From Candidatus Woesearchaeota archaeon (GTDB lineage Archaea > Nanobdellota > Nanobdellia > SCGC-AAA011-G17 > JACPIM01), in the NCBI GenBank assembly GCA_964513145.1, contig CAZELK010000002.1:65113-129112 (forward strand): a stretch of 64,000 nt of DNA. Direction: 5' to 3'. Shown one piece after another: positions 8,254-54,277 of this stretch. Both the position numbers and the translations under genes were made by a program. Numbering within the stretch: the stretch's first letter is position 1; every line of letters starts with the position of its first letter. The notes beneath the pieces were generated by a model. The model searched no databases. It was given only the letters and a program-made list of their open reading frames with translations, and was not told the origin of the DNA.

Positions 8254-8285
8254 CCAGTTTTGCTTAAGCTTTTTTTGAAAGCTTA
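8254..8285 (-). repeat. Dispersed hairpin-tail element, AAGCTT type, overlapping fttA stop
   Basis: TAAGCTTTCAAAAAAAGCTTAAGCAAAACTGG on minus strand. Confidence 0.8.
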
Positions 8286-14250: not shown

Positions 14251-14339
14251 ATTAGATAAAAACAAAGTTCATTTATTAATATTTTTAAAAAGTGTAACTG
14301 CGCTGGCCGAGGTTTGAAATCCCGAAACTTCTTTTAGTC

Positions 14340-14365
14340 TTTGATTAAACTTTTTTGAAAAGTTT
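14340..14365 (-). repeat. Dispersed hairpin-tail element, AAACTT type, in tRNA-Gly T-arm intron
   Basis: AAACTTTTCAAAAAAGTTTAATCAAA. Confidence 0.8.
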
Positions 14366-14391
14366 GCTCGGGTCAGAGCCTCTTTACTCGC

Positions 14392-14418
14392 TTTTGATTA
14401 AACTTTTTCAAAAGTTTA
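14392..14418 (-). repeat. Dispersed hairpin-tail element, AAACTT type, in tRNA-Gly anticodon intron
   Basis: TAAACTTTTGAAAAAGTTTAATCAAAA. Confidence 0.8.
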
Positions 14419-14572
14419 TTGGCAAGGCCCAATACTAACCACTATACTACCAGCGCATCAGTAATCTTTTGTAAAACAATTATATTTAAACCTTTTTAGT
14501 CATGAGGCTTTGTTGTGGAGTCCTAAATTTATTTAGAAAGATATTTAATACAATAAAATCTAATTTATTCGT

Positions 14573-14963: not shown

Positions 14964-15097
14964 TGGGCCGAGAAGGATTTTCATTGCTTCTAGTTTTGTT
15001 TAAGCTTTTCTAAAAGCTTAATTTGAACCTTCGATCTAGACGGTGTAAACGTCTTGTCATTTGCAGAGTTAAAACTTAGCCACTAGACCACCGGCCC
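14964..15097 (-). tRNA. tRNA-Val(TAC) with two non-canonical introns: D-loop 20a/21 (15077-15061, 17 nt) and T-loop 59/60 (15021-14978, 44 nt)
   Basis: Acceptor GGGCCGG/TCGGCCC, anticodon stem AGACG/CGTCT with loop TTTACAC, T arm GAAGG-TTCAAAT-CCTTC after removing inserts; BHB motifs at both; CCA not encoded. Confidence 0.9.
14991..15020 (-). repeat. Dispersed hairpin-tail element, AAGCTT type, in tRNA-Val T-loop intron
   Basis: TAAGCTTTTAGAAAAGCTTAAACAAAACTA. Confidence 0.8.
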
Positions 15098-29787: not shown

Positions 29788-30137
29788 AATAGGTGTGTTA
29801 TAAGCCAGCTTCTGTTGAATTTCCTTTCGGAAAAATTCAGGCTAACATTTTACTAAGCGTCTGTAATAGACTTGCACTAGTCAGGGCTTGCCGTTTCATC
29901 CATTCCTATGGAATGTCTTTGGGTTAACTCATTTCCATTTCAGGAAATTTCGCCATGTTCATCCTACCCATAGGGGGTCTCGTTTCTGAGCAGTTGCCAA
30001 CTTTTTCAAGTTCTTTTTTTCAAAAGTGACACTTTCACTTTCAAAAAAAGTTTTTTATAGCTTTTTCAAAAGTTTAAGTGGCTGGACTTTCCTCAGACAA
30101 GTTTAAGGCTTATCCGATAGTTAGCTGCACACCTATT
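29788..30137 (-). ncRNA. rnpB: RNase P RNA
   Basis: P1 AATAGGTGTG/CACACCTATT, CR-I GAGGAAAGTCC, GAAAC elements, CR-V AACAGAAGCTGGCTTAT; carries an AT-rich hairpin insert around 30001-30076. Confidence 0.9.
30057..30076 (-). repeat. Degenerate hairpin element inside RNase P RNA
   Basis: TAAACTTTTGAAAAAGCTAT followed by further T-run/A-run hairpins. Confidence 0.6.
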
Positions 30138-32153: not shown

Positions 32154-32184
32154 TAAGCTTTTAGAAAAAGCTTAAGCAAAAAAC
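32154..32184 (+). repeat. Dispersed hairpin-tail element after rps13 stop
   Basis: TAAGCTTTTAGAAAAAGCTTAAGCAAAAAAC. Confidence 0.8.
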
Positions 32185-42526: not shown

Positions 42527-42955
42527 ATGATAATAGATGCAAAAGATTTGGTATTAGGAAGACTGGCTAGTTTTAGCGCTAAACAAGCTTTGTTAGGAGA
42601 AGAAGTTACTATAATAAATGTTGAAAAAGCTGTAATTAGCGGAAGCAAAGAAGATGTTTTAGCCAAATATAAATGGAGAGATAATTTGGGCGAACCTTTT
42701 AAAGGACCTTTTATGCCAAAAATACCAATGAAATTTGTTAAAAGAGTTATAAGGGGAATGTTGTCTTATAAAAAAGGAAGGGGAAAAGAAGCGTTTAAAA
42801 GAATTAAATGCTATCCAGGAAATCCAATGAATGTCAATGGCGTAACTTTAGAAAAAGCCAAATCAACAAAATTAAATAAGAGTAATTACATAACTGTAGA
42901 TGAACTTTGCAAAGAATTAAAAAACAAAGGAAAACCAGCAAAGAAAGCTTTTTAG
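42527..42955 (+). CDS. rpl13: 50S ribosomal protein uL13
   Basis: MIIDAKDLVLGRLAS, NVEKAVISG, KRVIRGML; start reassigned to 42527. Confidence 0.95.
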   Translation: MIIDAKDLVLGRLASFSAKQALLGEEVTIINVEKAVISGSKEDVLAKYKWRDNLGEPFKGPFMPKIPMKFVKRVIRGMLSYKKGRGKEAFKRIKCYPGNPMNVNGVTLEKAKSTKLNKSNYITVDELCKELKNKGKPAKKAF

Positions 42956-42976
42956 AAAAAAGCTTTAACAAAAAAC
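42944..42976 (+). repeat. Dispersed hairpin-tail element overlapping rpl13 C-terminus/stop
   Basis: AAAGCTTTTTAGAAAAAAGCTTTAACAAAAAAC. Confidence 0.8.
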
Positions 42977-54190: not shown

Positions 54191-54277
54191 TAAGCTTTTA
54201 AGAAAAGCTTAAGCAAAACTGGCAGTCTTTAAAAAAACTTAAGCAAAAACAAACTTTTTAAGAAAAATTTCAAAAAA
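54191..54277 (+). repeat. Cluster of one full and two degenerate hairpin-tail elements after Cys-rich paralog 2
   Basis: TAAGCTTTTAAGAAAAGCTTAAGCAAAACTGG (AAAAGCTTAAGCAAAACTGG identical to the copy at 8254) then ..AAAAAAACTTAAGCAAAAAC and AAACTTTTTAAGAAAAATTTCAAAAAA. Confidence 0.75.

Follow-up and report, generated by a model that had tools for sequence, protein, structure and literature searches.

A predicted three-exon tRNA-Gly(GCC) gene with two introns built on a dispersed hairpin repeat in a Woesearchaeota-type archaeon

A 158-nt stretch on the minus strand of the DNA analysed here (14456-14299) is, with a probability of about 0.8, a functional single-copy tRNA-Gly(GCC) gene comprising three exons and two introns that arrived separately, each bearing a copy of a dispersed repeat. 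Its introns measure 38 nt at tRNA position 37/38 and 48 nt at 53/54, and both intron bodies are copies of a dispersed hairpin-plus-tail micro-element of about 26-40 nt. The window, to which coordinates refer unless a genome and contig are given, is a stretch of 64,000 nt from contig CAZELK010000002.1 (GCA_964513145.1). The genome, referred to as G000, is that of a tiny Woesearchaeota-type DPANN archaeon from groundwater and comprises 978 kb in 18 contigs with 29% G+C, at 98.8% completeness.

Structure and integrity of the tRNA-Gly(GCC) gene

A GC-rich acceptor strand and a standard D arm open the 158-nt stretch, and the T loop, the T stem, the acceptor strand and the discriminator A close it (Table 1). 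CCA is not encoded at its 3' end. When both introns are removed, ARAGORN folds the 72 nt that are left (37 + 15 + 20) into a regular cloverleaf and assigns it as Gly(gcc), whereas removal of intron 2 alone yields a tRNA-Gly with a canonical 38-nt intron. Archaeal RNA polymerase terminates at oligo-T, which makes the T5 run that follows the gene its likely terminator.

Table 1. Positions in the window of the elements of the tRNA-Gly(GCC) gene and of example repeat copies at stop codons.
Feature	Position	Strand	Description
TATA box (TTTAAATA)	14483..14490	-	27-34 nt upstream of the mature 5' end
Exon 1, 37 nt	14420..14456	-	tRNA positions 1-37: acceptor 5' strand, D arm, anticodon stem 5' strand, anticodon GCC
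Intron 1, 38 nt	14382..14419	-	at 37/38
Repeat copy in intron 1	14393..14417	-	8-bp AT hairpin and AATCAAA tail; starts 2 nt past the 5' splice site
Exon 2, 15 nt	14367..14381	-	positions 38-53: anticodon stem 3' strand, 4-nt variable loop, T-stem 5' strand
Intron 2, 48 nt	14319..14366	-	at 53/54; strict hBHBh'
Long-form repeat copy in intron 2	14325..14365	-	left arm, right arm, tail, second right-arm-like segment
Exon 3, 20 nt	14299..14318	-	positions 54-73: T loop, T-stem 3' strand, acceptor 3' strand, discriminator A
T5 run	14287..14291	-	likely terminator (putative role); 7 nt past the 3' end
Repeat copy at or overlapping a stop codon (example)	32155..32180		sense
Repeat copy at or overlapping a stop codon (example)	42945..42972		sense
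Repeat copy at or overlapping a stop codon (example)	54192..54217		sense
Repeat copy at or overlapping a stop codon (example)	8259..8284		sense

Neither ARAGORN on the raw window nor Rfam, at gathering and at permissive thresholds, reports a tRNA at 14299-14456. These misses are taken as no evidence either way. So that boundaries were not picked by eye, candidate introns were enumerated as all position pairs that give a 4-bp helix, 3-nt bulges and an outer helix of 2 bp or more. Every set of one to three candidates without overlap was removed in turn, and each product was run through ARAGORN. Among 268 motif-compatible combinations, one gave a glycine tRNA starting at base 1 (72 nt), namely the 37/38 and 53/54 pair. 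The two-intron gene proposed in the preliminary description of this DNA, with 38 nt at 37/38 and 48 nt at 53/54, is thus the sole glycine solution.

Both introns keep a 3-4-3 bulge-helix-bulge (BHB) core, with cut sites after the second bulge nucleotide. Intron 2 is of the strict hBHBh' form. Its outer helix is UGA/UCA (3 bp), its central helix CCCG/CGGG and its bulges AGC and AUU, and in its 8-bp inner helix the left arm of the repeat pairs with the second right-arm-like segment, located towards the intron's 3' end; this is the textbook geometry that had been attributed to it. Intron 1 is of a relaxed, bulge-helix-loop-like form. The central helix and bulges first described for it were found (UUGC/GUAA with one G-U pair; CAA and AGA) and its outer helix is the 5-bp anticodon stem, but the inner helix measures merely 1 bp and the 5' bulge sits in a larger loop. 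The 37/38 introns of all relatives, including those of G001-G003, G008 and GW2011_AR20, have the same relaxed shape. Folding of the precursor with the cloverleaf and both motifs constrained gave -37.4 kcal/mol against a minimum of -44.3; we judged this uninformative, because the mature cloverleaf also lies 5 kcal/mol above its own energy minimum. A T4 run is present inside each intron and could cause some termination.

Exon 1 has a single match in the genome at up to 3 mismatches. To cover split genes, exon matches were chained to 65 guide tRNAs from two intron-poor relatives. With the two Gly(gcc) guides, the search of the 18 contigs (98.8% complete) finds this locus and tRNA-Gly(CCC) only, and no second GCC gene. 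An intact copy elsewhere, which the preliminary description had named, along with the absence of a spliced product, as the mark of a pseudogene, was thus sought genome-wide and none was found. One gene copy is present together with one EndA and RtcB, and tRNA-Gly(GCC) is therefore not a pseudogene by this reasoning. A TATA box lies at identical distance upstream of the orthologues in G001, G002 and G003. The enumeration was repeated in each of 18 orthologues with and without introns (G000 and 17 other genomes), and all 18 give a Gly(gcc) tRNA of 72-73 nt. Among the 16 unique spliced sequences, 333 of 336 stem cells are paired and double (compensatory) changes occur in 9 of 21 pairs. Pairing is kept across orthologues, and selection therefore acts on the spliced product, whatever introns are present.

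A pseudogene disrupted by two repeat insertions, with the GGC and GGU codons read by another tRNA, would also be missed by standard gene finders, and its inserts would likewise belong to the dispersed repeat. We regard this explanation as hardly credible. The ends of both inserts coincide exactly with 3-4-3 motifs, and no other pair of boundaries restores a cloverleaf. The genome holds no other GCC gene, the exons are structurally constrained across the 18 orthologues and the promoter is conserved. Finally, in a reference-guided census 30 of the 35 tRNA loci of the genome are interrupted likewise and five are uninterrupted, so that nearly all tRNA genes would be dead.

The dispersed hairpin-plus-tail repeat

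The repeat consists of an arm ending in CTTTT, a short loop, AAAAG with the complementary arm, and a tail like AAKCAAAA, which echoes the first four bases of the left arm; ACTAAAAGAAG often comes after it. The copy in either intron starts 1-2 nt past the 5' splice site and opens with an 8-bp AT hairpin, after which comes AATCAAA; a single substitution and one additional A set the two intron cores apart. The 25-nt pattern has a chance expectation of 0.01 in the window, and a structural search recovered about 45 oriented copies in the genome; the dispersed element that the two introns had been proposed to share is thereby confirmed. The copies form three subfamilies, whose arms differ by compensatory changes (AAAC/GTTT, AAGC/GCTT and TATC/GATA).

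Twelve of the copies are located in tRNA introns. Repeat-bearing introns were found in Gly (two), Val, Ile, Phe, two Arg genes, a three-intron Ser (three) and another type II tRNA. An antisense copy is found within a tRNA-Arg intron. Of the canonical copies, 27 of 39 are located outside tRNA genes, some of them directly 3' of tRNA genes. Thirteen of these 27 start between -13 and +3 nt relative to a stop codon on the same strand, whereas 3% of random intergenic positions would do so under the null (p = 2e-13). The T-runs of the left arm measure 4-5 nt in all 12 intron copies and 6-8 nt in 8 of the 27 others; the shorter runs would fit selection against termination inside tRNA genes. Copies at stop codons mostly fail a BHB criterion of H = 4, h >= 2 and h + h' >= 5, which is a weak test, and were treated as non-introns. 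Since these copies are without a splice motif, the repeat is not an intron by itself, and each intron consists of the repeat together with a few bases specific to its site.

Two other roles were considered for the repeat and rejected. When intergenic copies were tested as BHB introns, 21 of 45 copies passed, but so did 43% of random sites, and the test is weak. As a promoter, the repeat stands at distances to the next start codon that vary from 5 to 176 nt, and true tRNA promoters read TTTAAATA. At two places in G000, C1:189705-189762 (two tandem copies) and C7:19045-19072, repeats interrupt the same conserved flank, GGATGCCACACAGT ... ACGTGGYTGTGACTGGGAGCTTCAC.

We then counted exact-pattern copies among relatives. 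Each genome of the genus (G000-G003) holds 26-34, and G008, from another genus of the same family, holds 31. Two genomes of other families, G019 and G020, have 34 and 12. The 34 other relatives, which include four genera of the same family, have 0-1 each, and reversed-pattern controls gave 0 copies. When the genomes of all species were scanned with the pattern, most matches were chance ones in bacteria, and 7 matches in Woesearchaeota/Nanoarchaeota were informative. The published complete genome GW2011_AR20 carries the repeat in its tRNA-Gly(GCC) too. A literature search on this repeat in Woesearchaeota or AR20 found no report.

Tandem arrays of 2-4 copies with a 34-nt period were observed at three loci of G008, including L032 (G008:C32:8250-8380) and L033 (G008:C28). 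Each array has the same conserved flanks, ATTCATCCC... on one side and AAGACTGAGTTTTCTTGCTTACTG... on the other. At orthologous gene junctions all congeners hold a hairpin element, but of another subfamily and sometimes in the opposite orientation. Antisense copies at these congener junctions end in AAAGGTT-AAA-ATG, directly before the next start codon.

The repeat might be a functional RNA module, such as a 3'-end/terminator hairpin or a protein-binding site, and not a mobile or selfish element. It would then be kept at junctions and reused in introns since it folds stably and presents a splice motif, with selection and gene conversion, not insertion, keeping the copies alike. The frequency of sense copies at stop codons, far above chance, agrees with such a module, as do the copies directly after tRNA genes, the hairpin element at orthologous junctions of all congeners and the compensatory changes in the arms. 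So do the lengths of the T-runs (4-5 nt in introns, up to 6-8 nt outside) and two negative results: no Y1/RAYT transposase (PF01797) was found in the genome, and filled and empty tRNA sites showed no target-site duplications. No terminal inverted repeats were seen either. However, the same junction carries different subfamilies and even opposite orientations among congeners, and related genera have either 25-35 near-identical copies or none, a patchy distribution. The tandem arrays in G008, the antisense copy in the tRNA-Arg intron and the copies at new tRNA positions within one genus also speak against it. On balance, we consider a functional module rather unlikely, though worth keeping in view.

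Histories of the two introns

A comparison of intron status in orthologous tRNA-Gly(GCC) genes, which the preliminary description had called for, revealed different histories of the two introns. In G000, the 37/38 and 53/54 introns both carry the repeat. G001 has a repeat-bearing intron at 37/38 only, G002 and G003 have repeat-bearing introns at 22/23 and 37/38, and G008, AR20 and two other Woesearchaeota have one at 37/38. Mini-introns without the repeat are present at 22/23 and 53/54 in G005, at 22/23 in G013, and at 53/54 in G007, G009, G014 and G015. The gene is intronless in G004, G010, G011, G023 and G024. The mini-introns measure 17-29 nt overall and 18-28 nt at 53/54, where they occur in about four genera of the family, g3, g5 and g7 among them. 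The repeat is found at 53/54 in the G000 species only and at 22/23 in the two congeners G002 and G003. The 37/38 intron was seen in repeat-bearing genomes only and is common to every repeat-bearing relative examined.

Since relatives hold repeat-free mini-introns at 22/23 and 53/54, these are probably the older intron sites of the family, and the repeat would be a later filling. Most likely, the repeat filled or replaced an existing 53/54 intron rather than creating one: the older mini-intron site would have acquired a long-form repeat in this species only, and the inner helix now appears to be formed by the arms of this repeat. As the order of events is read by parsimony from unrooted, related genomes, the alternative is that 53/54 was gained afresh in this species. 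The 37/38 intron may have been made by the repeat. The shortest such intron, of 29 nt in one Woesearchaeota genome, equals 2 nt plus one repeat copy, and in it the repeat tail supplies GUAA, the 3' strand of the central helix. The tRNA-Gly(CCC) gene of G000 (C3:77406-77493, minus strand), which ARAGORN miscalls as tRNA-Ser(act), has a 16-nt mini-intron at 22/23, whose 3' end matches the repeat-bearing 22/23 introns of G002 and G003.

Two independent insertions of one element family had been suggested, with local intron copying as the other option. The closest relative of the intron 2 copy is a copy located 3' of tRNA-Ile (G000:C2:34340), with a score of 29 over 41 nt of homology; its score with the intron 1 copy is 21. 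The core of intron 1 is identical to the copy in a tRNA-Arg(TCG) intron. Different nearest copies and different histories in relatives thus support independent colonisation of the two sites and not local copying. The part of the suggestion that stands is independence; the creation of a new intron by insertion fits 53/54 less well, as this is an older mini-intron site. Duplication of one intron of the gene into the second position would account for the shared sequence, and the near-identity of two cores separated by 53 nt agrees with it. Beyond the family consensus, though, the two copies are not each other's closest relatives, their post-tail segments differ (AGCGAG against GACTAAAAGAAG), and repeat-free introns hold 53/54 in four genera of the family. 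Such a duplication is accordingly quite improbable. On the preferred reading, the two repeat copies would have reached tRNA-Gly(GCC) separately.

One observation is not accounted for by this favoured explanation. The spliced tRNA-Gly of G000 shares 66-67 of 72 positions with that of genus g5, against 61-62 of 72 with its own genus, and G000 and g5 have in common both the 53/54 intron and the T-stem CCGAG/CUCGG, a pair called derived. The locus of G000 is nevertheless syntenic with those of its congeners despite the closer spliced sequence in g5. The likeness could reflect retained ancestry, gene conversion or transfer.

A broader proposal, which we put forward tentatively as possible rather than probable, is that the repeat is the vehicle by which tRNA introns of these archaea enlarge and, at some sites, arise. 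The repeat would insert immediately next to the 5' splice site of a mini-intron that is already present. Where its tail or second arm completes a BHB motif, a single insertion would be spliceable at once. At 37/38 of tRNA-Gly(GCC), the tail GCAA-AA would pair with the loop nucleotides UUGC.

Splicing machinery, other interrupted tRNAs and known systems

The genome encodes one EndA of 188 aa, a one-unit protein matching PF02778 and PF01974 (E = 1e-30). A scan of all open frames of the genome found no second EndA subunit. Among relatives of known structure, the M. jannaschii alpha4 enzyme (1A79) and the alpha subunit of N. equitans are nearest to it. The alignment with 1A79 is gap-free from residue 25 to the C-terminus (M. 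jannaschii residues 25-171), and the protein is without the 6-residue insertion placed before the catalytic His in the N. equitans alpha subunit. The residues that we take to be the catalytic Tyr, His and Lys, by our assumed numbering of the triad, align with those of 1A79. No loops tied to broad specificity are evident in the EndA alignment. The subunit check proposed earlier thus points to a single one-unit EndA resembling the strict alpha4 type with no inserted loop, and the relaxed-specificity EndA that such introns had been said to need does not appear in the gene content. Judged from sequence, there is a tension between the relaxed form of intron 1 and a sole EndA that resembles the strict alpha4 type without loop insertions. 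Heavy tRNA disruption in DPANN has been linked to an alpha4 EndA with an extra loop, L3 (Kaneta et al. 2018; PMC5829648).

One RtcB ligase gene is present in the same genome. Its match is split (G000:C6:75368-78150), with profile positions 1-44 and 49-426 about 1.4 kb apart; the first part contains one TAG, and an intein or other insertion is possible. The EndA gene (L001, G000:C7:32279-35539) lies back to back with a 316-aa gene that has an HxHxDH metallo-beta-lactamase motif and looks like RNase Z. Rfam locates an archaeal RNase P RNA in the window (29789-30136, minus strand). Within it, 15 bases (30061-30075) are identical to the left arm, loop and right-arm start of the intron 1 repeat. 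This AT-rich stretch follows a conserved GAGGAAAGTCC block and has no tail, and 2 of 100 shuffles match equally, so that the resemblance is weak.

With this gene content, the TATA box of tRNA-Gly(GCC) itself would direct transcription of a 158-nt precursor core. EndA would cut between the second and third nucleotides of the four 3-nt bulges in the two BHB motifs, at 37/38 and 53/54, RtcB would join the three exons (37 + 15 + 20 nt), and RNase P and the CCA-adding enzyme would complete the ends.

The two-intron tRNA-Gly(GCC) is typical for its genome, in which interrupted tRNAs are the rule. Intervening sequences number about 47-50 in all, up to four per gene and about 1.4 per tRNA gene, and about a quarter of the introns in the genome carry the repeat family. 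An automated strict-motif catalogue resolved 11 of the 30 interrupted loci. In G000, ARAGORN detects 15 tRNAs and Rfam 18 at its cut-off. In G001-G003 and G008, which are rich in the repeat, Rfam detects 9-17 (E <= 1e-5), and in four repeat-free relatives of similar completeness 25-35 (E <= 0.001); the lower numbers in repeat-rich genomes are a trend only, as the genomes are mutually related. The neighbouring tRNA-Val(TAC) gene (14964-15097, minus strand) has a 17-nt D-loop mini-intron that is common to G001-G003 and G008, and a 44-nt 59/60 intron with an AAGCTT-type repeat in G000 only. In G001 and G003, a repeat lies just 3' of the tRNA-Val gene instead of the 59/60 intron. This pattern matches the history of tRNA-Gly(GCC), with a repeat-bearing intron in G000 only.

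Multi-intron tRNA genes are described for Thermoproteales (Sugahara 2008; Fujishima et al. 2010, Mol Biol Evol 27:2233; both via PMC4090602). Within a single genome, very similar introns occupy several positions and several tRNAs and differ between close relatives, and the mechanism of this intron transposition is called unknown (PMC4090602). The introns described here are alike in that tRNAs have several introns and similar intron sequences recur across positions and tRNAs of one genome. They differ in their host, a 1-Mb Woesearchaeota-type DPANN archaeon with a one-unit EndA. The shared sequence also differs: it is a genome-wide hairpin repeat, with most copies outside tRNA genes and half of these abutting stop codons, and not a family confined to tRNA introns. 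Moreover, repeat-free mini-introns at the same sites in relatives show the repeat as an addition.

Among other DPANN archaea, disrupted tRNA genes of ARMAN go with an epsilon2 EndA (PMC3239211), and Kaneta et al. predicted hidden disrupted tRNA genes in Woesearchaeota (PMC5829648). In this DPANN lineage, too, standard tools miss the full tRNA set, and its EndA is of alpha4 type; unlike the loop-bearing alpha4 enzymes (PMC5829648), the EndA described here is gap-free to that of M. jannaschii and shows no evident broad-specificity loop. A census of Asgard tRNA introns (bioRxiv 10.64898/2026.10.13.758758) found repeated gains and no general arrival route, with 1.5% of introns in cross-tRNA families. 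The heavy intron load, the recent lineage-specific gains, the many D-arm introns and the splice-motif sites are common to both, whereas in G000 about one intron in four belongs to a single repeat family that also lives outside tRNA genes.

The repeat may further be set beside short palindromic repeats of bacteria. Its copies recall the REP/MITE-like sequences of bacteria, such as REP (with RAYT), Correia and BOX repeats. They share with these the short hairpins, an asymmetric tail, tens of dispersed copies, positions after stop codons, tandem arrays and a patchy distribution that varies between close relatives. They differ in that neither a cognate Y1/RAYT transposase in the genome nor terminal inverted repeats or target duplications were found, in the archaeal host, and in copies inside RNA genes, which are tolerated because tRNA splicing removes them.

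Thus, multi-intron tRNAs and cross-position intron families were known already (PMC4090602), and hidden disrupted genes had been predicted for Woesearchaeota (PMC5829648). What is new is that the shared intron sequence is a genome-wide repeat that also marks gene ends, that the same sites are empty, occupied by mini-introns or filled in different relatives, and that repeat-filled introns coexist with a plain one-unit EndA. The interrupted genes show why Woesearchaeota tRNA sets look incomplete in standard annotation, and a very high intron load beside a plain EndA puts to the test the view that heavy disruption of tRNA genes depends on loop insertions. The arrival of archaeal tRNA introns is a standing question, and tRNA-Gly(GCC) gives a rare view of their growth and spread: one orthologous gene, within one family, has empty sites, mini-introns of 17-29 nt and repeat-filled introns of 29-57 nt at three positions. 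As the filling sequence is a recognisable repeat, intron growth and gain can be traced by population metagenomes and in vitro cleavage. If the repeat is indeed the vehicle of intron enlargement and origin, it would provide a concrete, testable arrival route for archaeal tRNA introns.
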